Positions 3,361 through 64,000 of a DNA stretch of 64,000 bases are shown here, piece by piece. The translations under genes and the position numbers were made by a program. Numbering within the stretch: the first letter of the stretch is position 1; the number at the start of each line of letters is the position of its first letter. The DNA lies in assembly GCA_045645425.1 (NCBI GenBank), contig JAZRIS010000026.1:3785-67784 (forward strand). The letters are read 5' to 3'. Origin of the DNA: Barnesiella sp. GTDB lineage: Bacteria > Bacteroidota > Bacteroidia > Bacteroidales > Barnesiellaceae_A. Below the pieces are notes generated by a model, which was not told the DNA's origin, searched no databases, and saw only the letters and a program-made list of their open reading frames with translations.

Positions 3361-4587
3361 ATGAAAAACATTAAGTTTCGTCTTATCGTGATGAACTTCC
3401 TGCAATATGGAGTGTGGGGAGCTTGGCTCATCTCTTTGGGCGCCTACTTGGGTGGAAGTCTGCAATTTACAGGTTTGCAGATAGGTAGCTTTTTTGCAAC
3501 TATGGGTATAGCTTCGCTGTTTATGCCTGCCCTGATGGGTGTTGTTGCCGACCGTTGGATTCCCGCACAACGATTGTTGGGTATCTTGCACCTTTTGAGT
3601 GCACTTTGCATGATATATGCCGCCACACAAACCGAATATACAACGCTCTATGCAGCAGTGTTGATGGGTGTTATATTTTATATGCCTACCATTTCCATGT
3701 CTAACACGGTGGCCTATAATGCACTCACAAAGAGTGGATTGGATACGGTTAAGGATTTTCCTCCTATCCGTGTATGGGGTACGGTAGGTTTTATTTGCTC
3801 GATGATTGCCGTAGATTTGCTCGGCTTTGCTCAAAGTGCCAATCAACTCTATTTCTCGGCTGCGTTGGGTATCATCTTGGGACTCTATTCGTTTACCTTG
3901 CCTCATTGTCAAGTAAGTAAGAAAGCTCCTGAGGGTAATTGGGTAGATGCCTTGGGCTTGCGTGCCTTTGCCTTGTTTAAGGAGAAACGCATGGCCGTTT
4001 TCTTCATTTTCTCCATGTTCTTGGGTGTATCGTTGCAGATAACCAATGCCTTTGCCAACAGCTATCTTACCAACCACTTCGGTGCCATATCGGAGTATGC
4101 CGGCACATTTGGTGTTGAGCATGCCAATATACTCATTTCGCTCTCTCAGTTGAGCGAAACACTCTGTATCTTGCTTATACCCTTCTTCTTGAAACGCTAT
4201 GGTATCAAGAATGTGATGCTCATCAGTATGTTTGCATGGGTATTGCGCTTTGCTCTCTTGGGCTTGGGCGATCCCGGTGCGGGTGTATGGATGCTCATTC
4301 TCTCTATGATTGTATATGGTGTAGCTTTTGACTTCTTCAATATTTCGGGCTCGCTATATGTCGAGAAAGAAACATCGCCTGCCATCCGCGCAAGTGCACA
4401 GGGCGTATTTATGATGATGACCAACGGATTGGGTGCTACCATCGGCTCGTATGCAGCCGGAAAGGTAGTAGATATGTATGGTTGGCCCAACTCGTGGTTT
4501 ATCTTCGCCGGATATGCTCTTATAGTGGCTACTTTGTTTGCCATTGTTTTCCGTTACAAACACAATCCCGAAGAAACACAAGCATAA
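3361..4587 (+). CDS. nupG: nucleoside:H+ symporter (NupG/XapB family MFS permease)
   Basis: 408 aa and polytopic. The N-terminus FLQYGVWGAWLISLGAYL...FMPALMGVVADRW closely parallels E. coli NupG. Confidence 0.8.
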   Translation: MKNIKFRLIVMNFLQYGVWGAWLISLGAYLGGSLQFTGLQIGSFFATMGIASLFMPALMGVVADRWIPAQRLLGILHLLSALCMIYAATQTEYTTLYAAVLMGVIFYMPTISMSNTVAYNALTKSGLDTVKDFPPIRVWGTVGFICSMIAVDLLGFAQSANQLYFSAALGIILGLYSFTLPHCQVSKKAPEGNWVDALGLRAFALFKEKRMAVFFIFSMFLGVSLQITNAFANSYLTNHFGAISEYAGTFGVEHANILISLSQLSETLCILLIPFFLKRYGIKNVMLISMFAWVLRFALLGLGDPGAGVWMLILSMIVYGVAFDFFNISGSLYVEKETSPAIRASAQGVFMMMTNGLGATIGSYAAGKVVDMYGWPNSWFIFAGYALIVATLFAIVFRYKHNPEETQA

Positions 4588-30469: not shown

Positions 30470-32794
30470 CTACTCTCCTTTTTTATTGTAGCCATATCCA
30501 TAGCCTTGCTTGGCTGTTGTGGCGTTGATTACGAGCGATACGTTGCGCAAACGTTGTTCTGCCACGAGCGAGTTGCAGTAACGTATAGCGTCAATCTCGG
30601 TGTAGTTGGCACGGCATACATATATCACTGTATCGGCCAATCGCATGAGTGAGAACGAGTCTGATACCATGCCTACGGGAGCCGAGTCAATTACGATGTA
30701 GTCGTAGCGACTGCGCAACTCCTCAAAGAGCTTGTCCAAACGACCATTCAACAACAATTCGGCAGGGTTGGGCGGAATGGGACCGGCAAGAATTACATCA
30801 AGCTCGGGATTGATATTCGACGGCAAGATGATGTCGTCTATAGTGATATTTTCGGATGACAGATAGTTGGTCATACCATATTTGTTCTGCAAATTCATGT
30901 ATGAGCCCAACTGAGGACTGCGTATGTCAAGACCAATGATAATGGTGCGCTTGTTAAGCAACGAAAGCGAAACAGAGAGGTTGGTGCTGACAAAAGATTT
31001 TCCTTCGCCACTTACCGACGAGGTGAGTAGTATAACCTTGTCGTTCTTGCCGGTGAGGAGGAATTGAAGGTTGGTGCGCAATAGACGGAACAGCTCGGCA
31101 ATAGAGCTTGTGTCGCCTTTGTGAACAACAATCTTTTCTTTGGTAGTGTTGATACATACCTCTCCCAAAACAGGGATGTTTGTGATTTTTTCGAGCTCTT
31201 CCTTGGTGCTGAATTTGGTGCGGAACAGAGCCTTGACATACAAGTATGCCGAGGGAATAACCACGCCTATGATTGCCGCAATAAAGAGGAGCATTAAGGT
31301 GGACATATTAGATGGCTCGCTGTAGTTAAATGCGGCATCTACAATTTGACCCTTGGGTGATGCCATTGCCAATGTGATGGCGTTCTCTTCTTGTTTTTGG
31401 AGAAGGAAAATATATAGTTCCTCTTTGATTACCTTCTGGCGGTAGATAGATATAAATTCGCGTTCTTGCGATGGCATGGTGCGTATGCGAGAGAGGTATT
31501 TATCTTCTTGTGAACGCAAATCGTTGAGTGCTATCTCGGCGCTCTCTTTGGCAGTGTGAACGCTTGCTATTACGTTCTTTCGTGAGGCATCAATCTGATT
31601 TTCTATTAATTTCATTGCAGGGCTGCCGGGCTTGGCGCTGCTTATCATGTTGATGCGAGAAAGAGCCAATTTGTTGTATTCGCTGATGGCATTGCTGGGT
31701 GAGTCACCTATGTTAGAGGTGAATGGTATGAGCGCATAGCGATTGTCGGGTTGTGAAATAAATTCCAATATATAATCCAATACCTTCACCTCGGTTTCTG
31801 CCTCGATGAGCTTGGTGCGGAGGATGATATCGTTTTCGAGAATTGCTTTGGCTTCGACCTCTATGTCCGACAAGTTGTTCTCTTTTTTATAAAGTTCAAC
31901 AGCGCGTTCGGCAGTGTTGAGCTCGGCTTCGATAATGGCGAGGCGTTCATTGATGAAGAGAGCGGTGTTGCTGGCCTCGATATTTTTCTCTGTTATACCG
32001 CGTTCGTTGTATAGCTGAACGATAGAGTTGAGTAGGGCTTTACCTTGCTCGATATAGGGTGTCTCGTAGCTCAATCGTATCAAGTTGGCCATTTTACTTG
32101 GCATAAAAATTTCGATGGATTGAGCCAAATCCTCTGTGGCGATGTCGTAGCCTTTTACTATCAAGTTGTAACCATACTTCTCTCCGGGTATGTAGCTGTC
32201 GGTTGTAGTGATGACAAAATCGCCATATATACAGCTTACTGTGTCGGGTAGGGTTACGTTCTTTTTGTTTACCAACTTTTTGAAAAAGTTCTTTTTCAAG
32301 GTAATATCGGCAAGGCCGTCTTTGTCAATGAGTACCTTGAAGTTGAGCGAGCGCTTGAGTGTATCGCAAACGTTGTTGATGTCGATAATATCAAGAGCGT
32401 AGTCGGAGTGTTCTTTGTAGCGCACGAAGAAGTTCTCACGATATATGTGCTCGATGTTGAGATCCATTTTTTCGGCAGTTTGGCGCAACAATGAGTGTGA
32501 CGATATGATGGTAATCTCGTCATCTACGCTTGTTCCTTGTCCCATGATGCTACCCAGACCCATTTGATGCATGAATGCTCCTGCCATATTGCTGGATGAT
32601 GACATATCGGTGCGTATCATCACGTTGGCTTCGACAATGTATTTGTCAAGCGTTATTTTGGAGTATGTAAATGCCAATGCTACGCAGATAAATATAGAGA
32701 TGGCATACAAGTACCAATTTTTGGCAATAGAGGCAACTATATCTTGAATATTGATGCTTTCGTTATTCATATTGTTGTGCGATGAATTTTCCAT
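30470..32794 (-). CDS. wzc: polysaccharide co-polymerase / tyrosine autokinase (Wzc-like)
   Basis: 774 aa: two TM segments flanking a coiled-coil periplasmic domain, Walker A SSVSGEGKS, and a C-terminal tyrosine cluster GYGYGYNKK. Confidence 0.85.
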   Translation of the reverse strand: MENSSHNNMNNESINIQDIVASIAKNWYLYAISIFICVALAFTYSKITLDKYIVEANVMIRTDMSSSSNMAGAFMHQMGLGSIMGQGTSVDDEITIISSHSLLRQTAEKMDLNIEHIYRENFFVRYKEHSDYALDIIDINNVCDTLKRSLNFKVLIDKDGLADITLKKNFFKKLVNKKNVTLPDTVSCIYGDFVITTTDSYIPGEKYGYNLIVKGYDIATEDLAQSIEIFMPSKMANLIRLSYETPYIEQGKALLNSIVQLYNERGITEKNIEASNTALFINERLAIIEAELNTAERAVELYKKENNLSDIEVEAKAILENDIILRTKLIEAETEVKVLDYILEFISQPDNRYALIPFTSNIGDSPSNAISEYNKLALSRINMISSAKPGSPAMKLIENQIDASRKNVIASVHTAKESAEIALNDLRSQEDKYLSRIRTMPSQEREFISIYRQKVIKEELYIFLLQKQEENAITLAMASPKGQIVDAAFNYSEPSNMSTLMLLFIAAIIGVVIPSAYLYVKALFRTKFSTKEELEKITNIPVLGEVCINTTKEKIVVHKGDTSSIAELFRLLRTNLQFLLTGKNDKVILLTSSVSGEGKSFVSTNLSVSLSLLNKRTIIIGLDIRSPQLGSYMNLQNKYGMTNYLSSENITIDDIILPSNINPELDVILAGPIPPNPAELLLNGRLDKLFEELRSRYDYIVIDSAPVGMVSDSFSLMRLADTVIYVCRANYTEIDAIRYCNSLVAEQRLRNVSLVINATTAKQGYGYGYNKKGE

Positions 32795-44621: not shown

Positions 44622-45641
44622 ATGGGATTTTTCTCATTAACACAAGAAATAGCAGTGGACCTCGGAACGGCCAATACCATTATCATACATGATGGCAAGA
44701 TAGTGGTAGATGAGCCTTCGGTGGTAGCATTGGAAAAGAAGACCGAGAAACTCGTGGCGGTAGGTGAGAAGGCTCGCCAGATGCACGAGAAGACAGCGCC
44801 CCATATCACTACCATTCGCCCCTTGCGCGATGGTGTTATTGCCGATTTCTATGCGGCCGAGCAGATGATACGCGGTATGGTGAAGATGGTCAATCCTCAA
44901 CGTCGCTGGTTTACTCCGTCGTTGCGTATGGTGGTATGTATCCCATCGGGAAGTACCGAGGTGGAGATACGTGCCGTGCGTGACTCGGCCGAGCATGCCG
45001 GTGGTCGCGATGTCTATATGATATATGAGCCTATGGCGGCAGCCATTGGTATAGGTATTGATGTTACTGCCCCCGAAGGTAACATGATTGTGGATATAGG
45101 TGGCGGTAGCACCGAGATTGCCGTAATCTCATTGGGTGGTATCGTTTCTAACAAGTCGATACGCATTGCGGGTGACGACCTCACTGCCGATATACAGGAG
45201 TATATGCGCCGTCAGCACAATGTGCGCATCGGTGAGCGTACTGCCGAGTTGATAAAAATCAACGTGGGCTCGGCTTTGACCGAGTTGGCCGATCCTCCCG
45301 AAGACTATATCGTGCATGGTCCCAACCAGATGACTGCATTGCCCATGGAGATACCTGTGTCATACCAAGAGGTGTCGCACTGCATCGAGAAGTCAATCTC
45401 GAAAATTGAAGCGGCTGTCCTCAGTGCCTTGGAGCAGACTCCTCCTGAGTTGTATGCCGACTTAGTGCGCAATGGTATCTATTTGGCCGGTGGTGGTGCT
45501 CTGTTGCGCGGTCTTGACAAGCGTCTTACCGACAAGATTGGTATTACCTTCCACATTGCCGACGATCCTTTGCATGCCGTTGCCAAAGGTACAGGTGTTG
45601 CACTGAAGAATATTGACGAATTTAACTTCCTTATTCGATAA
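44622..45641 (+). CDS. mreB: rod shape-determining protein MreB
   Basis: 339 aa, actin-fold, with IAVDLGTANT and DIGGGSTEIAV. Confidence 0.95.
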   Translation: MGFFSLTQEIAVDLGTANTIIIHDGKIVVDEPSVVALEKKTEKLVAVGEKARQMHEKTAPHITTIRPLRDGVIADFYAAEQMIRGMVKMVNPQRRWFTPSLRMVVCIPSGSTEVEIRAVRDSAEHAGGRDVYMIYEPMAAAIGIGIDVTAPEGNMIVDIGGGSTEIAVISLGGIVSNKSIRIAGDDLTADIQEYMRRQHNVRIGERTAELIKINVGSALTELADPPEDYIVHGPNQMTALPMEIPVSYQEVSHCIEKSISKIEAAVLSALEQTPPELYADLVRNGIYLAGGGALLRGLDKRLTDKIGITFHIADDPLHAVAKGTGVALKNIDEFNFLIR

Positions 45642-45741
45642 TAATAGTTGTGATATTGCTCCGAGTTACACGCTTTGTAATAAAGTTGTGTAACTCGTTG
45701 CGGTAAAACACTATGTCGTAATAGATACCCCATATACTTCG

Positions 45742-46587
45742 ATGCGCAATCTTATAGACTTTCTTATCAAGCATCACACATGGATATTTTTTATATTCTA
45801 TGTGGTGATAAGTTGTATTCTGTTGTTCTCTTCCAATCCCTATCAGCGCAGTGTCTTTTTTGGCTCTTCCAATAGGGTGGTAGCACAGGTTTATGAGTTG
45901 TCTAACGAGGTGTCGGGATATTTTGGATTGCGCAAGGCCAATGATGAATTGTTGATGCAGAATGGCGAGTTGGCTATGGAAAATATGCGCTTGCGACGCA
46001 TGTTGCAACGATATAGTTATGCCGCCGTGGCCGACTCTATTGCGGTGAATGACCCTATGTTGCAACAATACGATTTCATTATGGCGCATGTCATCAACAA
46101 CAGTGTGGCGCACCTCGAAAATTATATCACACTCGATAAGGGCAGTGCCGATGGTGTGGCACCGGAGATGGCTGTGGTAGATCATCGAGGTATAGTAGGT
46201 ATTGTCAATGTAGTCAATGAACACAACTCGGTGGCCATATCGGTGTTGAATACCAAGTTGCATGTGAGTTGCAAGGTAAAAGGAACAGATTGTTTCGGCT
46301 CGTTGGTGTGGGATGGACGCAGTGCGGCTTATGCCGTTCTTGAAGAGATGCCTCGTCATGTCGAGTTTGTTCCCGGCGACACAATCGTAACGAGCGGTTT
46401 TTCGGCAGTTTTCCCCGATGGTGTTATGGTGGGAACAATTCACGACTATGCCAAGCAGAAAGATGATAATTTCTATGCCATGCAGGTGAAATTATCTACC
46501 GACTTTACACAATTAGGAGCTGTGCGTATCATCAATAATCACATGCAGGACATGCAACAAATGTTGGAGAAGGAGGCACGACAATGA
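45742..46587 (+). CDS. mreC: rod shape-determining protein MreC
   Basis: 281 aa: N-terminal TM, a coiled coil (LLMQNGELAMENMRLRRML), then a beta-rich domain. Position is between mreB and mreD. Confidence 0.85.
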   Translation: MRNLIDFLIKHHTWIFFIFYVVISCILLFSSNPYQRSVFFGSSNRVVAQVYELSNEVSGYFGLRKANDELLMQNGELAMENMRLRRMLQRYSYAAVADSIAVNDPMLQQYDFIMAHVINNSVAHLENYITLDKGSADGVAPEMAVVDHRGIVGIVNVVNEHNSVAISVLNTKLHVSCKVKGTDCFGSLVWDGRSAAYAVLEEMPRHVEFVPGDTIVTSGFSAVFPDGVMVGTIHDYAKQKDDNFYAMQVKLSTDFTQLGAVRIINNHMQDMQQMLEKEARQ

Positions 46588-47102
46588 ACATCAATGTGTT
46601 GCGAGAAATATGTATTGCGCTCCTGTTTGTGTTATTGCAGGCAGTGGTTTTCAATCAAATATACCTCTTTGGTGTTGCTGTTCCGTTGGTATTTATCTAT
46701 GTGATATTGCGCATGCCTTTGTCGTTATCTACCGCATGGTTGCTCACGGCTTCGTTTTTCTTGGGCTTGGTGGTAGATATTTTTGGCAATACTCCCGGAA
46801 TGAATGCCCTTGCTTGTACGATATTGGCCTTTGTACGTCGTCCCATCCTCTCGCTCTATCTGCCTCATGGTAGCGACTATGTTGCCGAGATACCTTCGAT
46901 AAGAGGTTTTGGTATGTGGCTCTATGTGCGTTATTCTCTCACGCTTACATTCGTTTATTGCTTGTTGCTGTTTGCCATCGAGTCGTTGTCGCTGTTCGAT
47001 TTGCCTTATATGCTCGTGCGCATTGTGTGCAGTACGTTGCTTACATTTATCCTCATTCTTTGTGTCGATAGTTTAAATCAAGGTCGTGAGAAAAGATTAT
47101 AA
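46584..47102 (+). CDS. mreD: rod shape-determining protein MreD
   Basis: 172 aa with about 5 TM helices. Its start overlaps the mreC stop by 4 nt, the canonical operon position. Confidence 0.7.
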   Translation: MNINVLREICIALLFVLLQAVVFNQIYLFGVAVPLVFIYVILRMPLSLSTAWLLTASFFLGLVVDIFGNTPGMNALACTILAFVRRPILSLYLPHGSDYVAEIPSIRGFGMWLYVRYSLTLTFVYCLLLFAIESLSLFDLPYMLVRIVCSTLLTFILILCVDSLNQGREKRL

Positions 47103-48939
47103 TCTTGAAAAGAGAAAGTATGTCATAGCGGCAGCATTGCTTGTGGTTGTGGCTGTGTTTCTTGTGCGCCTGTTTTCGCTGCAAGTGGGAGATAACGACT
47201 ACAAACGTTATGCCGACAGTAATGCCTTTCAACGCAAGGTGCTATATCCCTCGCGCGGATTTATCTATGACCGCAATGGCGAGCTCTTGGTGTATAACCA
47301 ACCGGCCTATGATGTGATGATGATACCCCGCGAGATGCGCTCGATAGATACGCTCGATTTTTGCGCAACGCTGGGTATCGATACGGTGCAGTTCAAGCGC
47401 TATATGCTTGACATGAGAAAGAGTCCCGGTTATTCGTCATATACACCGCAAGTCTTTATGACGCAGTTGTCGGCTCGCGATTATGGACGTTTGCAAGAGA
47501 AGTTGTATCGCTATCCGGGTGTTTATATCCAAAATCGCGTATTGCGTGAATATAGCCGTCCCATTGCGGCCAATGTGTTGGGAAACATTCGAGAGGTGTC
47601 GCCCTCCGACATTGAGCGTGACGAATATTATCGTCGAGGCGATTACACCGGCGATTTGGGCGTTGAAAAGTCTTTTGAAGAGGTGTTGCGTGGTGTCAAA
47701 GGCGAGGAGATACTATTGCGGGATGTGCATGGACGCATCAAGGGCAAGTATGAAGATGGTCGTTATGATATACAACCCGTGTCGGGCAGAAACGTAACTC
47801 TCTCGATTGATGCCGATTTGCAAGCCTATGGCGAGAAGTTGATGCAGAACAAGACCGGTGCTATTGTGGCAATAGAGCCCTCTACCGGTGAGATATTGGC
47901 TCTGGTATCGAGTCCTACTTACGACCCCTCCATCTTGGTGGGTAGGGAGCGTGGCAAGAATTATGCGCGCCTCACTCGCGACCCCGGCAATCCGCTTTAC
48001 GACCGTGCCATCATGGCCGTCTATCCTCCCGGCTCTACATTCAAGCCTACTCAGGGCCTTATATTTCTTGAAGAAGGCATCATAACACCGCAAACACACT
48101 ATTCTTGTACAGGCGGTTTTGTAGTAGGAGGATTGCGTGTAGGATGTCATGCCCATGCCGCTCCATTGCCGTTGATACCCTCATTGGCTACATCGTGCAA
48201 TGCCTACTATTGTTGCGGATTGCGCTCGATGCTCGACAATCGCTCGCTCTATGATAGCACTTCCGAGGCTTTTGAGATATGGAAAAACCATCTTGTTTCG
48301 ATGGGTTATGGCTATAAATTGGGTATAGACTTGCCCGGCGAGAAGCGAGGCTTCTTGCCCAATAGTGCATACTATGATAAGTTTTATGGACAAAATAGAT
48401 GGAAGGCTCTCACCATCATATCTATCGCCATAGGGCAAGGTGAGATATTGGCTACACCATTGCAGATAGCCAACCTTGCTGCCACAATAGCCAATAGGGG
48501 ATATTTCTATACACCTCATGTTGTGAAGGCTATACAAGACACGGTGATAGATACGACCTATACGGTGCGTCGTTATCCTACGGTAGATGCTCGTCATTAT
48601 GATGCGATAGTAGAGGGTATGCGTATGGCAGTGACCGATGGTACTTGTCGTACGGCCAATCTTCCCGATATAGAGGTGTGTGGCAAGACAGGTACTGCTC
48701 AAAATCCGCATGGACGCGACCACTCGGCTTTCATGGGATTTGCTCCGATGGACAATCCTCGCATTGCTATTGCTGTGTATGTCGAGAATGCCGGTTTCGG
48801 TGCTACCTATGGCGTGCCTATCGGTAGTCTTATGATGGAGTATTATCTCAATGGCGAGATAACAGACCCTGCTCGTAAGGACTTGGAACAAAGAATGTTT
48901 AACTCAAAAGTAGTAGGTAATAGTGGCAAGAAACGTTGA
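47086..48939 (+). CDS. mrdA: penicillin-binding protein 2 (elongasome transpeptidase)
   Basis: 617 aa with a GTG start. Has the PBP dimerisation domain plus transpeptidase motifs STFKP, SCN and KTGTA. Confidence 0.9.
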   Translation: MRKDYNLEKRKYVIAAALLVVVAVFLVRLFSLQVGDNDYKRYADSNAFQRKVLYPSRGFIYDRNGELLVYNQPAYDVMMIPREMRSIDTLDFCATLGIDTVQFKRYMLDMRKSPGYSSYTPQVFMTQLSARDYGRLQEKLYRYPGVYIQNRVLREYSRPIAANVLGNIREVSPSDIERDEYYRRGDYTGDLGVEKSFEEVLRGVKGEEILLRDVHGRIKGKYEDGRYDIQPVSGRNVTLSIDADLQAYGEKLMQNKTGAIVAIEPSTGEILALVSSPTYDPSILVGRERGKNYARLTRDPGNPLYDRAIMAVYPPGSTFKPTQGLIFLEEGIITPQTHYSCTGGFVVGGLRVGCHAHAAPLPLIPSLATSCNAYYCCGLRSMLDNRSLYDSTSEAFEIWKNHLVSMGYGYKLGIDLPGEKRGFLPNSAYYDKFYGQNRWKALTIISIAIGQGEILATPLQIANLAATIANRGYFYTPHVVKAIQDTVIDTTYTVRRYPTVDARHYDAIVEGMRMAVTDGTCRTANLPDIEVCGKTGTAQNPHGRDHSAFMGFAPMDNPRIAIAVYVENAGFGATYGVPIGSLMMEYYLNGEITDPARKDLEQRMFNSKVVGNSGKKR

Positions 48940-50371
48940 TGTGTGGAAGTCGGTAGATAAGTTTACCATCTTTCTTTATGTTATACTTGTTTTCTTTGGC
49001 TGGGTGAGTATATATGCGGCCAGCTACGACTATGATCAGGCCAGCATTTTCGACTTTGCCGAGCGCTCGGGCAAGCAGCTTGTGTGGATAGGGCTTGCTT
49101 TTGTATTGGCTTCGGTCATTCTGCTTGTCGATTCACGCATGTTTGAGACGTATGCCTACTTGATATACATTGCTTTTATACTCCTGTTGCTTTTTACCTT
49201 GGTAGTTGCCGATGATGTCAAAGGCTCCCGATCGTGGCTCACCATTACCTCTTCGATACGATTGCAACCGGCCGAGTTTGCCAAGTTTGCGACGGCATTG
49301 GCGGTGTCAAAGATGTTCAATGGCTATAATTTCAAGTTTACCGAGCCGGCCAACTTTTTCAAGATTGTAGGTTTGGTATTGTTGCCGATGTTGATTATTG
49401 TGATGCAGAAGGAGATGGGGTCGGCATTGGTATATCTGTCGTTTGTCTTGATGATGTATCGCGAGGGTATGACAGGCTTGGTGCTGTTTGGCGGTATATG
49501 TGCCATTGTCTATTTTGTATTGGGTATAAAATTTAGCTCGGAAATGTGGATGGGTGCCCCGTTGGGCGAGAGTATTGTCCTCATTCTCATTTGCCTTGTA
49601 TTGGTGGGTATCATACGATTTTTTGCCCAAAATCGCATCGTGGCGCGCAATTTGTCCATATTCTACATAGTTGTGGCAATAGTAGTGAGTGTGCTCGGTG
49701 CGTGTCATGTCGCTGTGCCTATGTTGTATGTGCTTTTGGGCGTTATAGCGCTCTCGTTGCTCTATCTTATTGCCATCTATTTCTCTCACTTTACCTCAAA
49801 GATATTGATTGCCGTAGCGGTTACGATTGTTTCGGTGGTGTTTATGTTTTCGAGCAATTATATATTCAATAAACTCGACGACCACCAACGCACACGTATC
49901 GAAGTATTGTTGGGCATAAAGGAGGACTTGCGTGATGCCGGTTATAATGTCAATCAGTCGAAGATAGCCATAGGCTCCGGCGGGTTTTGGGGCAAGGGCT
50001 TCTTGAATGGCACACAAACCAAGCTCAAATATGTTCCCGAACAAGATACCGACTTTATCTTCTGTACGATAGGCGAAGAAGAGGGTTTCTGGGGGTCGTG
50101 TCTTTTATTATTGCTATTTACGGTCTTTATATTGCGTATCATGACAATAGCCGAGCGGCAACCGCGACCCTTTGGACGTGTGTATGCCTATTGTGTCTTG
50201 GGTATTTTCTTCTTTCACCTCTTTATCAATGTGGGTATGGTGATAGGATTGTGCCCTGTTATAGGTATTCCGTTGCCATTTTTTAGCTATGGAGGCTCGT
50301 CGTTGTGGGGATTTACCATTCTCTTGTTTATACTCTTGCGCATTGATGCCTCGCGTAGTGAGCATTTCTAA
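48923..50371 (+). CDS. rodA: SEDS peptidoglycan polymerase RodA
   Basis: 482 aa with a GTG start, in the FtsW/RodA/SpoVE family (LQPAEFAK, PEQDTDFIF, PFFSYGGSS). Follows mrdA. Confidence 0.9.
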   Translation: MARNVDVWKSVDKFTIFLYVILVFFGWVSIYAASYDYDQASIFDFAERSGKQLVWIGLAFVLASVILLVDSRMFETYAYLIYIAFILLLLFTLVVADDVKGSRSWLTITSSIRLQPAEFAKFATALAVSKMFNGYNFKFTEPANFFKIVGLVLLPMLIIVMQKEMGSALVYLSFVLMMYREGMTGLVLFGGICAIVYFVLGIKFSSEMWMGAPLGESIVLILICLVLVGIIRFFAQNRIVARNLSIFYIVVAIVVSVLGACHVAVPMLYVLLGVIALSLLYLIAIYFSHFTSKILIAVAVTIVSVVFMFSSNYIFNKLDDHQRTRIEVLLGIKEDLRDAGYNVNQSKIAIGSGGFWGKGFLNGTQTKLKYVPEQDTDFIFCTIGEEEGFWGSCLLLLLFTVFILRIMTIAERQPRPFGRVYAYCVLGIFFFHLFINVGMVIGLCPVIGIPLPFFSYGGSSLWGFTILLFILLRIDASRSEHF

Positions 50372-57594: not shown

Positions 57595-58071
57595 CTATAT
57601 TTTCTCTTTTTTTCTACTATCGGCACTATGCTGTGAGTTGTGTCTTATGAGTAGAACAATGCTTGTCAGTTGCGAGGCGAGGCAGAGTGTAACGAACAGA
57701 TACTCCCATTTGTGCGGGCTGTCGCCATTGCCCTCGTTGATGGGTATTGCGTAGGGTATGGAGTCGATGATGTGTACCTCCTTGGTGTGTATGGCAACGC
57801 TGTCGCGACGCGGCTCGACGATGAGGGTGTGCAGTAGCGTGCCGTTTGTTACCGAGGCTCGGCTCGACACTCCGTTGCCTTGTAGGAGGCTTGTGGTGTC
57901 GATAGTGTGGTTGTAGTATGCTTCGCCATTCGATATTATTTCTACAACGGTGTCTTTTATCAAGACAACTTCGCTATGATGTCTTTCTGCGGGGATATAA
58001 GTCCTCTTGTTGCAACTTGTTATTGATAATATCATGCTTGCAACGATAGCGAGGTATGGTAGCCATTTCAT
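57595..58071 (-). CDS. lipoprotein with a C-terminal TM anchor (unimolecular-spanin-like architecture)
   Basis: 158 aa with the lipobox SITSC at the N-terminus, a beta-rich middle, a C-terminal TM WEYLFVTLCLASQLTSIVLLI and a basic tail. Its start overlaps the stop of the M15 gene by 4 nt (ATGA). Confidence 0.4.
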   Translation of the reverse strand: MKWLPYLAIVASMILSITSCNKRTYIPAERHHSEVVLIKDTVVEIISNGEAYYNHTIDTTSLLQGNGVSSRASVTNGTLLHTLIVEPRRDSVAIHTKEVHIIDSIPYAIPINEGNGDSPHKWEYLFVTLCLASQLTSIVLLIRHNSQHSADSRKKEKI

Positions 58072-58475
58072 TGGTATAACACCTCCTTTCTGTTTTCTCC
58101 GTTACGCTTGTAGCTCACGTGTATCCATGCCGGTCCCTGTTTGTTGCCTCGTTCCCATATAAGTTGGTCGAAAGGCAGTTTGAGAAGTATCTCAAATAGC
58201 CTTTTGTTCTCGGCCGGATGTCCTGTGTCGATGTCGGCCGCTTCTCCTATGGTGTGCTGGCTGTTATCTACACCTCCTACGCATTTGTTGAGTCGAGGAC
58301 AACGATAGCCACTGTTCACTCTGATGGGCTTGCCCAAGGCTTCGCGTGCGGGGTCAAGAACATGCTCCACCAACGCTTGCAAGTTCTGTATGCACATCTT
58401 GTCTGGCGTGTTGTCGATGTGCAGTTGGCGAGCTACGGCACTGTCGGTGAGTTCTTCGATAATAAAATATTTCAT
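58068..58475 (-). CDS. peptidase M15 (Peptidase_M15_3 / phage endolysin-type cell-wall peptidase)
   Basis: 135 aa. Zn ligand pattern SQHTIGEAADI (H..D) plus WIHVS (H). No signal peptide. Confidence 0.8.
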   Translation of the reverse strand: MKYFIIEELTDSAVARQLHIDNTPDKMCIQNLQALVEHVLDPAREALGKPIRVNSGYRCPRLNKCVGGVDNSQHTIGEAADIDTGHPAENKRLFEILLKLPFDQLIWERGNKQGPAWIHVSYKRNGENRKEVLYQ

Positions 58476-58702
58476 TCCTCGCCTCCTTTCTTGTCGCGAT
58501 GAATGTGCGTGCGAATGCGGTAACTGTAATCGACCCCAAACAGTGCTCCGGCAAAAGTCACCACTTCGCCAAAAGCTACCAATACGCTGTTGTGTATTTC
58601 GCCTTCAGGAGCCACCCAAAATCCCGAAAAAATAAGCACCAATCCCGCCAAGCACATAATGCAAGCGGTGATGAGGTGTATTGTCATTTTGTCTATTTTC
58701 AT
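58472..58702 (-). CDS. holin-like small membrane protein (two TM helices, charged C-tail)
   Basis: 76 aa. TM1 is IHLITACIMCLAGLVLIFSGFWV, TM2 is VLVAFGEVVTFAGALFGV, and the tail is RIRTHIHRDKKGGEE. Its stop overlaps the M15 start by 4 nt. Confidence 0.45.
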   Translation of the reverse strand: MKIDKMTIHLITACIMCLAGLVLIFSGFWVAPEGEIHNSVLVAFGEVVTFAGALFGVDYSYRIRTHIHRDKKGGEE

Positions 58703-58826: not shown

Positions 58827-58834
58827 TATATTTG
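58827..58834 (+). promoter_or_regulatory. -7 promoter box (TAtaTTTG) for the GrpE-like/Hsp70-like operon
   Basis: Exact TAnnTTTG 32 nt upstream of the ATG at 58867. A direct repeat TTACAATT-n2-TTACAATT (58784-58801) sits over the expected -33 region. Confidence 0.5.
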
Positions 58835-58866: not shown

Positions 58867-59670
58867 ATGGGCTTATTTGGTAATAATGATAGCGAATTGA
58901 GAAGCTTTGAGCAGACAATAGAACGCTTGAAAGTGGAGTATGCTGCACTTGAAGACGAAAACCGACGTAAAGATGCCGAAATAGAACGCCTGAAGACAAT
59001 AGTTGAGGGTATGGGTAGCACTCCCGAAGTTGTGGTGCCTGCTCCTGAAACTGTGCCCGCAGAAGAGCCTGTGTCGGGTGTTGATTGTGCACCGGCAATG
59101 GAGGCTATCAACGCATCGCTCAATGAGTTGAAAGAACAAACGCAGGCTCAAAAGGCATTGATGGACGAGTTTAAAGTATTGTTGGGACATCGTGACCGCC
59201 AAGACGAGAACATGCGTGCCATGCACAAGGAGCTGGAACAATATAAGGGCGACTTTTTTGTCAAGATTACACAGCCCTATTTAAAGGCATTGCTCGACCT
59301 CCACGGCCGTTTTTATGGCACATACACCCATTTCGACCAGCTCGACAATGCCGAGTGCGATTGGGCTGAGTTGTATGGCAACCTGATGCGCGAATTTAAG
59401 AGCGCCATTATGGCCCTGAGCGATAGAGCATACAATGACTTTGGTGTAGAATATTATGAGCCGCAAGAGGGTGAGGAGTTCAACCGTAAGTTGCATCAAC
59501 AACTTCAAGGCGACTCGGTAGATACAACCAACCCCGAATTGAATGGCCGCATCGCCAAGGTGGTATGTGGAGGCTTTATCAATGTCGATACCGAGAAGGT
59601 GGTGCGTTATGCACGCGTGAAAGTCTATAAATACACCGAGGCAACACAAACACCCGAAAACAACGAATAA
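58867..59670 (+). CDS. GrpE-like nucleotide-exchange factor paralog
   Basis: 267 aa. It has an N-terminal coiled coil (ERLKVEYAALEDENRRKDAEIERLK) and an acidic/Pro linker. The C-terminal half parallels GrpE: RAMHKELEQYKGDFFVKITQPYLKALLDL; FGVEYYEPQEGEEFNRKLHQ; GRIAKVVCGGF...VVRYARVKVYK. Confidence 0.55.
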   Translation: MGLFGNNDSELRSFEQTIERLKVEYAALEDENRRKDAEIERLKTIVEGMGSTPEVVVPAPETVPAEEPVSGVDCAPAMEAINASLNELKEQTQAQKALMDEFKVLLGHRDRQDENMRAMHKELEQYKGDFFVKITQPYLKALLDLHGRFYGTYTHFDQLDNAECDWAELYGNLMREFKSAIMALSDRAYNDFGVEYYEPQEGEEFNRKLHQQLQGDSVDTTNPELNGRIAKVVCGGFINVDTEKVVRYARVKVYKYTEATQTPENNE

Positions 59671-59691
59671 ACAAATAAAAAATATATAACT

Positions 59692-61284
59692 ATGGCAAAC
59701 GATAAAAGTAGAGCCGTATATGGCATAGACTTGGGTACAACATTTAGTTGTATCTCACAAGTAGATAGATATGATCAAGCAGTGGTACTTCGTAACTTTG
59801 AGGGCGATGCTACCACTCCATCGGTCGTGTACATTGAGTCGGAAAATAACATGATTGTGGGTAAAGAGGCCAAAAACCAGTTGGCTGTCGAGCCCGAAAA
59901 GACTGTTGCCTTTATCAAACGCGAGATAGGTAATGACGAGGCTTTTGACAAGAGCAAGAACACTACTCCCATGCACCTCGACCCCGTTGAAATTTCGGCT
60001 CTTATTCTCAAAAAACTCGTACAAGATGCCAACAACTTGGGCGAAAATCCCGAGCCTATCACCGACGTGGTGATTACTTGTCCGGCCTATTTTGGTAACA
60101 AAGAGCGCTTGCAAACCAAGCAAGCCGGTATCAGTGCCGGTCTTAACGTATTGGCTATCATCAACGAGCCTACTGCTGCCGCTATTTCTTACGGTTTGAA
60201 GGTAGATGAGCGTCGTACTATCCTTGTGTATGACTTGGGTGGTGGTACATTTGACGTTACTATCATTGCTGTCAATGGCGGTGCTATCAAGGTAGTTGCT
60301 ACCGGTGGCGACCACCATTTGGGTGGTGTCGATTGGGATACCGAGTTGGCCAAGTATGTTCTCAATACATTCAACTCGCAAAATGGTACTTCTTACGACT
60401 TCGATTCTCTCTCTCCCAATGCTCGCTATGAACTCTTGCTCAATGCCGAGAACTGGAAGAAGAATCTCACTGCTCGTCAAACCGCCAAAATCAACTTCTC
60501 GTACGAAGGTAAATCGGTTAGCTTTGATCTTCCTCGCGAAACATTCAACGCCATTACCGAGGATCGCTTGAATGAAACTATCGATGCTACTCGCAAGATT
60601 ATTGAAATTGCCGAGGAGAAAGGTTACAAGAAAATAGATGAGATTATACTCGTGGGTGGTAGTAGCAAGATGCCTCAAATCAAGACTCGCGTTGAGGCCG
60701 AGTTTGGCTTGCCTACACACATTACCGACCCCGATGAGTGTGTTGCCAAGGGTGCCGCCATCTTTGCCATGAATGAGGCTTACGATGCAGCGTTGAAGAA
60801 ATCGGAGGAGGAAGGTACAAAAGCTCCCGAACCTCTTATGACCAAACGTACTCGCATTGTCAATGTTACAAGTAAGACCTATGGACTTGGCCTTATCGAC
60901 AACCAAGTGGGTAATATGATTTTTGCCAACACTACCTTGCCGGTGTCGCGTACACGCGTGTTTGAAACCGTGCGCGATGGTCAAACAGGTGTGACACTCC
61001 CCATCTACGAGAGCGACTTTACCGATGAGGAGAAAGACCAAACCGTAGAGGACCGCTTCTGTAACTTGGCTACCGAGGATATATCGGAGTTGAAACTTAC
61101 CGGCAACCATCCCAAAGGTACCGAAATCAAGGTTACGTTCAGCATCAGCGAGGAGGGTATTCTCAGTGTCAATGCTACCCGCGATAGCGACGTTATAGAT
61201 TTCCAATTAAAAGTAGCCGGTGTGAAGAGCGAAGAAGAGTTGAGAAAATCTCAAAACTTCATTGCCAATGCTACTGTCGAATAA
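59692..61284 (+). CDS. Hsp70-family ATPase, short form lacking the helical lid
   Basis: 530 aa with intact actin-fold motifs GIDLGTTFS, DLGGGTFDV and LVGGSSKMP. A beta-sandwich SBD-like region (VTSKTYGLGL...) is present, but the protein ends about 100 aa short of canonical DnaK. Confidence 0.9.
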   Translation: MANDKSRAVYGIDLGTTFSCISQVDRYDQAVVLRNFEGDATTPSVVYIESENNMIVGKEAKNQLAVEPEKTVAFIKREIGNDEAFDKSKNTTPMHLDPVEISALILKKLVQDANNLGENPEPITDVVITCPAYFGNKERLQTKQAGISAGLNVLAIINEPTAAAISYGLKVDERRTILVYDLGGGTFDVTIIAVNGGAIKVVATGGDHHLGGVDWDTELAKYVLNTFNSQNGTSYDFDSLSPNARYELLLNAENWKKNLTARQTAKINFSYEGKSVSFDLPRETFNAITEDRLNETIDATRKIIEIAEEKGYKKIDEIILVGGSSKMPQIKTRVEAEFGLPTHITDPDECVAKGAAIFAMNEAYDAALKKSEEEGTKAPEPLMTKRTRIVNVTSKTYGLGLIDNQVGNMIFANTTLPVSRTRVFETVRDGQTGVTLPIYESDFTDEEKDQTVEDRFCNLATEDISELKLTGNHPKGTEIKVTFSISEEGILSVNATRDSDVIDFQLKVAGVKSEEELRKSQNFIANATVE

Positions 61285-61306
61285 GTAATAATATACCCTA
61301 CCAATA

Positions 61307-61340
61307 GAGGTTGTGTCACTCGTGACACAACCTCATTTTT
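61307..61340 (+). terminator. strong intra-operon hairpin + T-run between the Hsp70-like gene and the 841-aa gene
   Basis: gaggttgtgtcac / gtgacacaacctc (up to 13 bp, tight loop), followed by attttt. It ends 12 nt before the ATG at 61353. Confidence 0.6.
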
Positions 61341-61352
61341 GAATGAATATAG

Positions 61353-63878
61353 ATGGATAAGACACTTCTAAAGCAGAAAATTGCCGAATGGGAGAAGGCG
61401 TGCGACTTCTTTGCATCGCCCGCCATTGCCAAGCAACTTGACAAAGACGAGAAAGAGGCTATTGTGTTCTTATGTAACTTCTGGCGCGATAAAGAGTTTG
61501 ACAAAGAGGTGTGCCAAAAGCGAATAGACCTGCTGAAACATTGCGATAAACTCCACTCCAATAATCGTGAGATTATAGAGAAGAGCAAGACCTTGCGAGG
61601 TATTGCACAGACATTCTATACCAAGGATGCCGCTTCGTTTGACGAGTTTCGCAGGGAATTGGGCTGGACACCCGGCACCAAGAAGACACCTACTCCCGAA
61701 ACAAAGAAAACGCCTGTGCCCACTCCCAAGCCCGACTCTACACCGCAACACGACGAGGCGTTGATTATAACCAATGTACAGAAGTGGTCGCGTTCATTAC
61801 AGTTTCTCAAGAGCGAGGAGATAACACCGCAACTCGATACCGCCGAAATTACTGCCATAGAGGTGTTGAGCGATATGTGGCGACGTCCCACTTTCGATGC
61901 TTCGATGAAAGAGGAGGCTGCCGAGATGGTAAAGGTGTTGGTCAATTCGCACAAACTTCATTCAAATAATCGTGAAATCATCGAGCATAGCAAAAACCTT
62001 TGTGCTGTGGCTCGTAAGATGTATGAGGATAAGAAATCCTTTGATGTATTCAAGAAGGCTCTCGCCGAGTATTATCAAAACAACAAGCCTCCTCGTCGCG
62101 ATATTCCTGTTCCCGAGAAGAAAAAGAAGCCCATACCTCAATCGCCGCATAAAGATAGCGAGTTGATTGTACGCGATGTGCTCTTTGCCGATACTACATA
62201 TAACAACGAGATTATTAAGGACTTTGGTAGGGTACTCTTTACCAATACGCAATATATAGTGCCCCGCTTGTCGGTATCGAGCGACTACTATGGTACCGAG
62301 ACGATTGAGATTATCTTGAAGTATCCCAATGGCGAAACTTGCAACTATGATACCGAAGTAACATTCAACGGTAAGGGCGATTATACATTGTCGGGCTGGG
62401 GTAGCAAGAGTGGTACGTCGTATGCTTCATACGGTTATGTCGAATATACTTTCAAGTGCAAGGGTAAGAAATTGTGGCAGGGTCGTGTGACAATAGGTCG
62501 CGACGCTAACAGTCCCCGCTTGCCCGAAATTTCCACTGTCAAGTTTGGTGCAGTAGATTACGATGGCAATATCAAGGTGAACTTTGGCTCGCCTATTCCC
62601 ACCGGTATTCCCTACTTGAAGCCTCGTATTGTGGTGTCTAACAACTTCCGTGGTGCGGTTACTATCGATATAACCTTTGAATATAAAGATAGGGCTACCG
62701 AGCGTACATCGAGCGATATAAGCATACAAGGCCCCGGAGAATATAATTTGACGGGATGGGGTCGTCGCGATTGTACATCATGGACCAAGAACGAAACCGT
62801 TAAAATCACCTTCAGTTGTGAGGGTAAGGTGCTCTATACCGCACAAGTGAAGATAGGCTCAGGCAGTGGCTGGGGCCCTAAAAAGACCAATAAGACTCCC
62901 TACCGACGCAGTAGTTCGGGCGACTCGTTGTGGGCTCGCTTTGATGACAAGATAAGATCGATAGGCGATAGCCTTGAAGATAGCAGTGAAACAATCACCA
63001 GTATCCTATCGTTCCTTCTTTTCATTATCTTGGTTGTCGGTGTGATATTTGAGTGGATAGATGAGGGATTTGGGGCTGCTCTATTGACCGGTGTGATAGG
63101 CTTCATCATACTATCTATTATTATAGCTGTCATGAGTTATATTATGCCTTTGATAGTATATGTACTGCGATTGGTATTTAAGAATGCTTGGACATTCCTC
63201 ATTGCGCTTATTCTTATCTTTGGCCCATCGATAGCCGGCATTGTGACAGGCGTGGCCAAAGGTGTATTTACTCGTAATGCAAGCAACTTACCCGCCATAG
63301 AAGAGATAGCAACTTCTACTACAACAACCTACTATTGCATTGCCCAATCGGGTGTGAGGGTGCGCCAAGAGCCCTCGGCAAGTGCTGCACAGTTGGGTGG
63401 TTTGCAATACAATGAAGAGGTAGAAGTGTATGAAATAAGAGATGGATATGCCCGCATAGATTATTACGGCAATGAGGCCTATGTAAGCAGCCGTTACCTT
63501 ACCATGGTAGAGGGTGAAGAATTTCTGAAAGAGAATGCTTCTCGCAAGGGCGTTGTGACCCTCAAAAGTGGATTGCAGTATGAGGTGTTGGAAAAGGGTA
63601 AAGGGAAAAAACCTGCCGAGAATAGCGATGTTTTGTGTCGCTATAAGCTCTCGCTGCTCGATGGTACAATAATTGATGATACCTTCTCATCGGATCCTAT
63701 CAAGCTCAATTTGGGAGGTACGATAAAAGGATTTCAGCAAGGTGTGCAGTTGATGAAGGAGGGAGCCAAGTATAAGTTTTATATCCCTGCTTCACTCGCT
63801 TATGGAAGTAAGTCGGTAAGAAATATTCCTGCTCATGCCACGCTTGTTTATGAAGTAGAGTTGGTAGAGGTGTTGTAG
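61353..63878 (+). CDS. multidomain membrane protein: 2 helical repeats + 2 beta-rich repeats + TM bundle + SH3b-like domain + FKBP-type peptidyl-prolyl isomerase
   Basis: 841 aa. The helical repeats share KLHSNNREIIE.SK.L. The beta repeats share G.Y.L.GWG...F.C.GK.L....V.IG. Hydrophobic segments span aa 547-636. The SH3b-like segment is YYCIAQSGVRVRQEPS...EVYEIRDGYARIDYYGNEAYVSSRYL. The FKBP domain is SGLQYEVLEKGKG...IKGFQQGVQLMKEGAKYKFYIPASLAYG...LVYEVELVEV. Confidence 0.7.
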   Translation: MDKTLLKQKIAEWEKACDFFASPAIAKQLDKDEKEAIVFLCNFWRDKEFDKEVCQKRIDLLKHCDKLHSNNREIIEKSKTLRGIAQTFYTKDAASFDEFRRELGWTPGTKKTPTPETKKTPVPTPKPDSTPQHDEALIITNVQKWSRSLQFLKSEEITPQLDTAEITAIEVLSDMWRRPTFDASMKEEAAEMVKVLVNSHKLHSNNREIIEHSKNLCAVARKMYEDKKSFDVFKKALAEYYQNNKPPRRDIPVPEKKKKPIPQSPHKDSELIVRDVLFADTTYNNEIIKDFGRVLFTNTQYIVPRLSVSSDYYGTETIEIILKYPNGETCNYDTEVTFNGKGDYTLSGWGSKSGTSYASYGYVEYTFKCKGKKLWQGRVTIGRDANSPRLPEISTVKFGAVDYDGNIKVNFGSPIPTGIPYLKPRIVVSNNFRGAVTIDITFEYKDRATERTSSDISIQGPGEYNLTGWGRRDCTSWTKNETVKITFSCEGKVLYTAQVKIGSGSGWGPKKTNKTPYRRSSSGDSLWARFDDKIRSIGDSLEDSSETITSILSFLLFIILVVGVIFEWIDEGFGAALLTGVIGFIILSIIIAVMSYIMPLIVYVLRLVFKNAWTFLIALILIFGPSIAGIVTGVAKGVFTRNASNLPAIEEIATSTTTTYYCIAQSGVRVRQEPSASAAQLGGLQYNEEVEVYEIRDGYARIDYYGNEAYVSSRYLTMVEGEEFLKENASRKGVVTLKSGLQYEVLEKGKGKKPAENSDVLCRYKLSLLDGTIIDDTFSSDPIKLNLGGTIKGFQQGVQLMKEGAKYKFYIPASLAYGSKSVRNIPAHATLVYEVELVEVL

Positions 63879-64000
63879 CGCTTTACCCATCATACATAGC
63901 ATTATCGCCCCGCAAGAGAGTTATCTCCTGTGGGGCGATGACATTTATAGCGTTGGTTGCTCTTCTTTGAAATGAGGATATTTACTTGACAAGGTTTTGT

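Follow-up and report, generated by a model that had tools for sequence, protein, structure and literature searches.

How might an Hsp70 be recruited and driven if the surface on which J-domain proteins dock has been lost from it? This question is raised by three adjacent genes on a contig of Barnesiella sp. (JAZRIS010000026.1, assembly GCA_045645425.1), analysed here within a stretch of 64,000 nt (contig positions 3,785–67,784, forward strand) that is referred to below as the window. All three genes lie on the + strand and were assigned from open reading frames (ORFs) and profile matches: g1 (58867–59670) encodes a GrpE-like protein of 267 aa, g2 (59692–61284) a lidless Hsp70 of 530 aa and g3 (61353–63878) an inner-membrane protein of 841 aa. 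The gap between g1 and g2 is 21 nt and that between g2 and g3 is 68 nt, the ORF check agreeing exactly with the gene positions and spacing given in an earlier, sequence-only reading of this DNA. In the current view Hsp70s need J-domain proteins both for targeting and for activation of their ATPase. The interpretation that we favour, on balance, is that the trio works as a dedicated Hsp70 machine with its anchor in the inner membrane, in which a new helical domain carried by g3 replaces the J domain.

A lidless Hsp70 and a divergent GrpE-like protein

The g2 product matched the Pfam HSP70 profile (PF00012) with 347 bits over profile positions 1–501 of 599 only, and its chain ends at the equivalent of E. 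coli DnaK residue 526, leaving just a remnant of lid helix A. It comprises a nucleotide-binding domain (NBD), an insertion of approximately 25 aa, a modified linker and the beta part of the substrate-binding domain (SBD-beta). In an alignment of 119 family Hsp70s with E. coli DnaK, catalytic residues D8, K70, E171, D194, T199 and D201 were found in every member having a residue at the position concerned (118 or 119 of 119), and both parts of the earlier description of g2, as lidless and as intact in its ATPase, are borne out. The SBD-beta pocket is hydrophobic, with Q433 and V436 largely kept. At the sites of J-domain contact, the position of DnaK R167 is occupied by Ala, Gly or Ser in 119/119 family members and the acidic J patch is gone, residues 209–211 being deleted and E217 replaced by Lys; in addition D393 has become Asn and K414 has become Ala. 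D211 is cited as a J-contact residue in a review by Mayer (PMC8215388). Within g2 the linker reads KRTRIVN in place of KDVLLLD (DnaK residues 387–393), the family form being T-R-[VI]-V-N. On the strength of these deletions and replacements, the g2 lineage is judged to have lost the canonical J-domain docking surface.

Against the NCBIfam equivalog models g2 missed the cut-offs for both DnaK (332 vs 648) and HscA (313 vs 709), and in BLASTP it scored 242 bits to DnaK versus 186 to HscC. Assignment of g2 as an HscC orthologue was ruled out: the protein is nearer to DnaK, has lost R167, has no lid and is encoded next to a GrpE-like gene. Identity of g2 across related loci is 83–98%, falling to 61.6% in the Butyricimonas locus (L024), and wider relatives are many, at 524–545 aa and 57–66% identity (e.g. 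in Prevotella and Marinifilum). The genes of these relatives, too, have a GrpE-like gene on their upstream side and one for a membrane protein on their downstream side. Matches to phage Hsp70s reached at most 35.5% identity and were DnaK-like. All three genes of the trio are under purifying selection between near-identical strains; ratios of nonsynonymous to synonymous change (dN/dS) given here and below come from close strains only, deeper pairs being saturated and left out. For g2, 0 nonsynonymous differences were counted against 15–22 synonymous ones.

The GrpE-homologous region of g1 (aa 82–255, nt 59110–59631, + strand) matched the Pfam GrpE profile (PF01025) with 44.7 bits, above the curated cut-off of 25.8, and extends over profile positions 10–165 of 165. 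To this region the protein adds an N-terminal coiled coil (aa 6–49) and an acidic, Pro-rich linker. When a profile made from 17 homologues of g1 was searched against the PDB, GrpE structures came out on top, namely 4ANI (E 2e-4, with almost all of the chain aligned) and 3A6M (E 3.7e-4, over the C-terminal beta domain), in agreement with the earlier proposal that the protein is GrpE-like. A phmmer search of the PDB with g1 as a single sequence found no GrpE, the homology being visible to profiles only, and scores against the NCBIfam GrpE equivalogs (13.6–14.7 bits) were far under their cut-offs of 176–266. Since the single-sequence search finds no GrpE and the equivalog scores lie so far below cut-off, g1 is classed as a divergent GrpE paralogue and not as housekeeping GrpE. 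It is predicted to be the nucleotide-exchange factor for g2. Across related loci g1 proteins are 31–80% identical to that of the window, and dN/dS for the gene is 0.06–0.09.

The helical module and the membrane protein that carries it

The N-terminus of g3 is formed by a helical module (module 1, aa 1–105, 61353–61667, + strand) for which AlphaFold2 (AF2) gave a confident model (pLDDT >85) with five main helices. It is followed by a disordered Pro/Lys/Thr-rich linker (aa 108–132, 61674–61748, + strand; pLDDT <50), by a second helical module that is paralogous to the first according to both AF2 and alignment (module 2, aa 131–245, 61743–62087, + strand), and by a second Pro/Lys-rich linker after module 2 (aa 245–270, + strand). 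In tblastn searches aa 132–276 also matched module 1 in related loci. Across 19 diverse modules (alignment A2) residues E33, W44, L61, H68 and F99 are invariant, and the family signature consists of W..FWR, K-x-H-x-x-N, F-R-G-[IL]-A and Y-T-K-D..F..F, which in module 1 of g3 takes the form K-L-H-S-x-N-R-E-I-I ... F-R-G-I-A ... Y-T-K-D. A module profile recovered 164 clusters (50% identity level) from 1.84 billion proteins; the module is nearly always N-terminal in these and is usually followed by transmembrane (TM) segments. With dN/dS of 0–0.06 it is the most constrained part of g3. The module had no match in Pfam, Foldseek searches of the PDB and of a viral fold library (BFVD) gave chance-level helical-bundle matches only, and no relatives were found in IMG/VR. 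From these alignments and searches the module, of approximately 100 aa, is classed as a new domain family and as the invariant part of the third proteins; the sequence-only reading had noted it just as a duplicated helical module.

The succession of a helix, a loop with an invariant His, a second helix and TKD resembles the layout of a J domain with a degenerate HPD motif. The loop motif of the family is H-[SAGP]-x-[NHD], and HPN occurs in a few members only. The idea that the module is a J domain whose HPD has degenerated to HSN or HPN was ruled out on sequence, there being no Pfam DnaJ match and an hhalign probability of 0.7% against a J-domain alignment. When the AF2 model of the module was compared with the PDB, the best E was 0.86 and no J domain stood among the top 50 matches, Foldseek being weak on small helical domains. 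Nor did any protein of the trio match a J domain, even at E≤10 on separate segments, and the earlier statement that the trio includes no canonical J-protein is therefore upheld.

The module was also used to trace the trio in other genomes. A scan with the g3 N-terminal profile, taking one genome per GTDB species, returned 16 loci from Bacteroidaceae, Barnesiella, Alistipes, Rikenellaceae and Butyricimonas, that is, from uncultured animal-gut Bacteroidales, mostly of the ruminant hindgut. The order GrpE-like gene, Hsp70 gene, g3 homologue was found in 16/16 of these. The same order was seen in L007/8, L025 (Marinifilum), L026, L029 and L032, down to a module E of 3e-6; that value belongs to the distant trio of L029, and at L032 the module protein P0167 sits in a trio. 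At distant loci the third proteins share with g3 the N-terminal helical module only. All-against-all clustering of ORFs from 24 loci left three shared families, other recurrent 'families' being antisense ORFs inside the Hsp70 gene, and no fourth conserved gene was found in these loci. The trio was seen in Bacteroidota only, a taxonomic range that rests on the loci sampled. The sequence-only reading had named three outcomes that would overturn it, namely a fold other than that of GrpE for the 267-aa protein, loss of synteny in related genomes, and identity with a known, named system. Each was checked and none overturns it: g1 matches GrpE as described above, the three genes have the same order in every related genome locus and are the sole conserved gene set there, and no match to the trio was found in PADLOC, NCBIfam or the open-access literature.

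A variant of the locus was observed in Prevotella (L027 and L028), in which the same three families are present together with a second Hsp70 between the first Hsp70 and the module protein. These loci have two tandem short Hsp70 genes, a module protein of 443 aa and four to five further genes including one for a DUF6175 protein. They adjoin VapE/BT4734-like primase and helicase genes, a setting that suggests they are carried by a mobile element.

Beyond the second linker, g3 continues with two tandem Ig-like beta-sandwiches (aa 273–382 and 393–501, 62169–62855, + strand; AF2 mean pLDDT 86.7) that are predicted to be cytoplasmic, and the AF2 models thus show both the helical and the beta pair that the earlier reading had described as duplications. 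Foldseek matches of the beta-sandwiches in the PDB were generic Ig/FnIII-like folds (the RbmA FnIII tandem, transglutaminase C-terminal barrels and Vps26, E 1e-6 to 1e-4). Among homologues the number of beta-module copies varies from 0 to 4, with MORN repeats instead in others. Hydropathy yields three predicted TM helices (approximately aa 549–567, 575–597 and 612–635; 62997–63257, + strand), at the lower end of the three to four proposed before, and distant homologues have a single TM helix at the equivalent place. The N-terminal ~545 residues contain no signal sequence, and the charges of the loops, with EWIDEGFG (acidic) placed outside and RLVFKN (basic) inside, fit an N-in, C-out topology.

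On the predicted periplasmic side an SH3b domain (aa 666–717, 63348–63503, + strand) matched SH3_3 with 47.9 bits (cut-off 27), as had been suggested; the domain is present in most of the family and is annotated in nearly all full-length homologues. The C-terminus is an FKBP unit, likewise predicted to be periplasmic, in which Pfam recognized the end of FKBP_N (aa 720–745) and FKBP_C (aa 752–838; 63510–63866 together, + strand). FKBP_C scored 73.5 bits and FKBP_N 32.9 bits over profile positions 72–97 only, so that the dimerisation domain is missing, and against the NCBIfam FkpA-type models the unit reached 97 bits (cut-off 215). In the pocket, compared by eye with the FkpA/Mip consensus, the Tyr and Asp are kept and the residues corresponding to FKBP12 W59 and F36 are Phe and Ile. 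A search with the cytoplasmic 550 aa of g3 gave 36 clusters that differ at the C-terminus: some end in FKBP, others in thioredoxin (P0011/12), TonB_C (P0014) or additional beta modules (P0034/35), and some have nothing beyond SH3b. Proteins in the range P0016–30 also lack FKBP at the C-terminus. FkpA-type FKBP, thioredoxin-fold domains and TonB_C are usually extracytoplasmic. The C-out topology is supported because the C-terminal domains of the homologues are of types usually found outside the cytoplasm. The FKBP domain that the sequence-only reading had described as Mip/FkpA-type is present as far as FKBP_C is concerned; as a defining part of the system it does not stand, being exchanged in homologues, and it is a variable, lineage-specific end of g3 and not part of the core.

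The cytoplasmic part of g3 is 43–88% identical to that of the window protein among full-length matches. In the comparison with L009 the N-terminal part is 86% identical, the TM-SH3 part 65% and FKBP 58%. All parts of the gene have dN/dS <0.3. Positive selection on the periplasmic end was looked for and not seen between close strains (dN/dS 0.14–0.29, from small counts). In P0034 and P0035 (L006) beta-sandwiches of the same type occur before the TM segment and after SH3b, on both sides of the membrane, which is unusual for a domain taken to act in a single compartment. In an Alistipes metagenome-assembled genome (MAG) a soluble paralogue is encoded between the Hsp70 and g3 genes (L023, 6148–7944; P0019, P0025, P0026), with one helical module, four beta-sandwiches and no TM segment. 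Public labels of g3 are 'FKBP-type peptidyl-prolyl isomerase FklB' or 'hypothetical'.

Expression signals and genomic setting

A TATATTTG box lies at 58827–58834 (+ strand), 33 nt upstream of the g1 start codon, and matches the consensus of the Bacteroidetes-type -7 promoter element. The box claimed in the sequence-only reading (TAtaTTTG) is therefore present. Taken alone it is weak evidence for a promoter because the motif is common in the window, where TAnnTTTG has 68 matches against approximately 50 expected by chance. In the four closest loci (L009–L012) a TA[TA]ATTTG box is found 37–41 nt upstream of the start codon, and no -7 box was found in the g2–g3 gap.

That gap holds a terminator-like hairpin with a 12-bp stem and a 4-nt loop (61307–61334, + strand; to 61344 with its tail ATTTTTGAAT). 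ATTTTT follows directly 3' of the stem, and the folding energy is -20 kcal/mol (z = -5.1). A hairpin with a T-rich tail occupies the equivalent position in approximately 17/20 related loci (including L007, L009–L021, L023 and L026). The stem GAGGTTGTGTC...GACACAACCTC is near-identical among Bacteroidaceae-type and Alistipes loci despite differing flanking gap sequence, and unrelated stem sequences are found at the same gap position in L016, L017, L026, L019 and L023. Because unrelated stems occupy the same position, the function of the hairpin appears to be conserved. The hairpin had no match in Rfam and an assignment to a known RNA family was ruled out on that ground. It is a putative attenuator, at which partial termination would fix how much Hsp70 and GrpE is made relative to the membrane protein. 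The earlier claim of one transcript is qualified to that extent: the trio probably has one promoter, with partial termination after the Hsp70 gene. Just past the g3 stop codon an inverted repeat (63902–63941, + strand; folding -28.9 kcal/mol, z = -7.7) probably marks the end of the operon. It lacks a T-run and for this reason was not listed by the terminator scan, and it may be a bidirectional terminator that the operon shares with a convergent 148-aa gene seen in L001.

Divergent from the operon is a compact lysis-type cassette with overlapping stops and starts (57595–58702, - strand). It encodes a 76-aa holin-like protein with two TM segments, an M15_3 peptidase (phrog_894 endolysin family, E 9e-36) and a 158-aa protein resembling a unimolecular spanin, with a lipobox-like N-terminus and a C-terminal TM segment. 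No other phage genes lie near the cassette. With TPR/ribH genes on one side and the operon on the other, it keeps its chromosomal site in 8 Bacteroidaceae-type MAG loci counted at species level. Its dN/dS is 0.02–0.42, and because it is thus under purifying selection it looks like a domesticated lysis module. The suggestion that the neighbouring cassette hints at a role of the trio in defence or lysis found no support, since the two are linked in Bacteroidaceae-type loci only; membership of the cassette in the trio system was ruled out by its absence beside the trio in Alistipes, Rikenellaceae, Butyricimonas, Marinifilum and Prevotella. A phage origin of the trio was ruled out as well, no relative of the module having been found in IMG/VR or BFVD and phage Hsp70s being distant. 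Other genes of the window include those for YidC (9975–11912), a Wzz/tyrosine-kinase capsule protein (30470–32794) and PBP2 and RodA (47086–50371), and purH; ORFs at 44622–47102, upstream of PBP2, are mreBCD-like by size only. The context of the operon is ordinary core chromosome, with no defence island or prophage.

A proposed cycle, its alternatives and related systems

In the cycle that we propose, the helical domain would dock on the Hsp70, recruiting it and possibly stimulating its ATPase as a J domain does for DnaK. As a candidate in-cis ligand, the Pro/Lys-rich linker behind it might be captured by the open SBD-beta, after which a dimer of the GrpE-like protein would release ADP and reset the cycle. 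Repeated binding and release at the membrane face could then remodel or pull the cytoplasmic part of g3, or proteins held on its Ig-like modules. On the other side of the membrane SH3b would hold g3 to peptidoglycan, and the exchangeable end domain (here the FKBP prolyl isomerase) would act on envelope proteins. Through the hairpin that follows the Hsp70 gene, the membrane protein is probably kept at sub-stoichiometric amounts. We infer that ATP hydrolysis is in this way coupled to envelope events. A more far-reaching version is put forward only tentatively: the module would be a co-chaperone class unrelated to J domains that docks on and activates a lidless Hsp70 devoid of the J site, the cycle would be the first J-independent, GrpE-assisted one described for a bacterial Hsp70, and by way of the membrane-spanning partner the use of ATP in the cytoplasm would be connected with folding or redox domains that are anchored to peptidoglycan in the periplasm, where ATP is absent.

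Several points weigh against replacement of the J domain by the module. The E. coli DnaK reference is assumed to be correct, the landmarks K70, R167, E171, T199 and VLLLD having been verified. The list of J-contact residues (R167; E206, D208, E209, D211 and E217; the DVLLLD linker) is, D211 excepted, likewise assumed to be right. A Pro-rich, net-basic stretch follows the module in 52/96 family representatives, compared with 14% of control windows, so that the linker is found in only about half of the representatives. Two weak but motif-bearing module matches, at L031 6001–8145 (P0298, E 5e-5) and L033 1975–3513 (P0262, E 2e-7), are flanked by genes among which no Hsp70 or GrpE could be recognised; either the module is perhaps not confined to the trio, or the genomes of L031 and L033 may encode its partners at another site. 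With respect to g1, the Hsp70 has a deletion of 6 aa at DnaK positions 290–295, the loop named as the GrpE signature in the Mayer review (PMC8215388), and its loss fits poorly with a GrpE partner, though g2 still has K55 and E267. The module might just as well be a client as a co-chaperone, and a canonical J protein may be encoded elsewhere in the genome.

The first of these last two possibilities leads to the main rival explanation, in which g3 is a dedicated client that Hsp70 and GrpE hold and deliver, the module serving as a recognition tag in the way that IscU is recognized by HscA. g3 has a cytoplasmic head of approximately 545 aa before its late TM helices and an exported tail of 200 aa. 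A chaperone and its client could be expected to show the same strict linkage of their genes, the basic, Pro-rich linkers look like ligands of Hsp70, the position of the hairpin behind the Hsp70 gene implies that chaperone is made in excess of g3, and DjlC is known to be guided into the membrane by DnaK (PMC8215388). However, the module is a well-folded, highly constrained domain, quite unlike a degenerate peptide that lies exposed; relatives freely exchange the remainder of g3, so that only the module itself would be served; and a J-docking surface remodelled so systematically suggests that the Hsp70 has gained a new regulatory partner and not just a new client. This explanation is considered unlikely. 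A further step down in probability is the proposal that g2 runs no cycle of its own, acting either as an Hsp110-like exchange factor or holdase on DnaK or under a J protein encoded elsewhere, with g3 as a membrane anchor only. Hsp110-like roles have been proposed for bacterial DnaK derivatives with reduced SBDs (PMC13580251, a 2026 review), and the window shows only its own genes and not the J proteins of the genome; the intact catalytic residues and hydrophobic SBD-beta pocket speak against such a role, an exchange factor would have no use for a GrpE of its own, and R167 and the acidic patch for J domains are absent in 119/119. We regard it as very improbable, and as the least likely of the explanations weighed here.

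Between these two in likelihood, and in our judgement improbable, stands the interpretation of the trio as an envelope sensor or an anti-phage conflict module, in which the variable periplasmic end would sense damage or invaders and the Hsp70 cycle would be a threshold switch, as proposed for Hsp70/GrpE GTPase systems. The periplasmic end does shuffle its domains and outpaces the cytoplasmic part in divergence, VapE-type primase/helicase genes of the sort typical of mobile elements adjoin the variant in Prevotella, and Hsp70 and GrpE occur in predicted conflict systems (PMC7159879). Set against this, a comparison of the three proteins with PADLOC-DB 2.0 gave no significant match, on which ground a known defence system was ruled out; the neighbourhoods of the 24 loci have no conserved gene for an effector, nuclease, GTPase or STAND protein; the window is core chromosome; dN/dS is <0.3 throughout; no viral relatives of the module were found in IMG/VR or BFVD; and the lysis cassette is linked in one lineage only. 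With these alternatives weighed, a membrane-anchored Hsp70 machine in which the module takes the place of the J domain is still the interpretation towards which we lean.

The nearest functional analogue is HscC with DjlB and DjlC, a specialised Hsp70 whose gene lies beside those of membrane-anchored partners, from which it is taken to act on the cytoplasmic side of the inner membrane; the HscC neighbourhood was examined at locus L030. E. coli HscC acts with the tail-anchored membrane J proteins DjlB and DjlC, and the only features that g2 has in common with it are two deletions, one removing the D211 loop and one within NBD lobe I (PMC8215388). HscC (556 aa) has a shortened lid and keeps R167, whereas g2 has neither, and it works with true J domains and does not use GrpE, whereas the trio has a private GrpE-like gene and a partner without a J domain. 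g2 thus lies outside the HscC subfamily as delimited by a length of 550–580 aa, a shortened lid, a DjlB/DjlC-type J protein nearby and no GrpE partner. In Myxococcus xanthus, GrpS and SglK (MXAN_6672 and MXAN_6671) form a two-gene unit apart from the heat-shock system, with a second GrpE directly upstream of a second Hsp70 (PMC11019930). SglK (MxDnaK2) is taken to be a DnaK paralogue that works with J-domain proteins (PMC11019930); this system belongs to a different phylum and was compared by description only, and no report was found of a linked membrane protein with the helical module. GAP1-N2 GTPase conflict systems (Kaur et al. 2020, PMC7159879) resemble the trio in having Hsp70 and GrpE in an operon with a repeat beta-sandwich protein, but they are defined by the GTPase, occur mainly in Actinobacteria and Firmicutes and include an FNIII protein in fusion with either a true J domain (DnaJ) or TPR repeats. 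CnuD of the CoCoNuT systems consists of NBD and SBD-beta only and is lidless like g2; its ATPase motifs are degenerate and it is fused or linked to McrB or McrC (PMC11090510), whereas the catalytic residues of g2 are complete. No GTPase or McrBC was found near the trio in the 24 clustered loci or among Pfam-labelled neighbours. In the mitochondrial import motor, mtHsp70 and Mge1 are tethered by Tim44, a docking protein that is not a J protein; that motor also needs the J protein Pam18 and imports through a channel. The likeness of the trio to it, as a tethered Hsp70/GrpE pair, is one of analogy only, and nothing at the locus indicates a channel.

No description of the trio or of the module was found in open-access full text, bacterial DnaK derivatives are essentially uncharacterised according to a 2026 review (PMC13580251), and nobody appears to have characterised the trio. 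As a specialised Hsp70 system it is of a known kind; what is new is the domain family that it contains, the conserved core that present annotations of g3 miss. A well-conserved Hsp70 lineage with an ATPase and a private GrpE, and without lid or J-docking residues, is here paired with an unclassified helical domain on a membrane protein, and the interest of the system lies in a possible J-independent Hsp70 cycle tied to the envelope. If the module does substitute for a J domain, there would be a second way to drive an Hsp70. The trio consists of three genes only, and the predictions it yields are clear. For gut Bacteroidales it is a candidate route by which cytoplasmic energy may be linked to periplasmic and peptidoglycan-associated functions.

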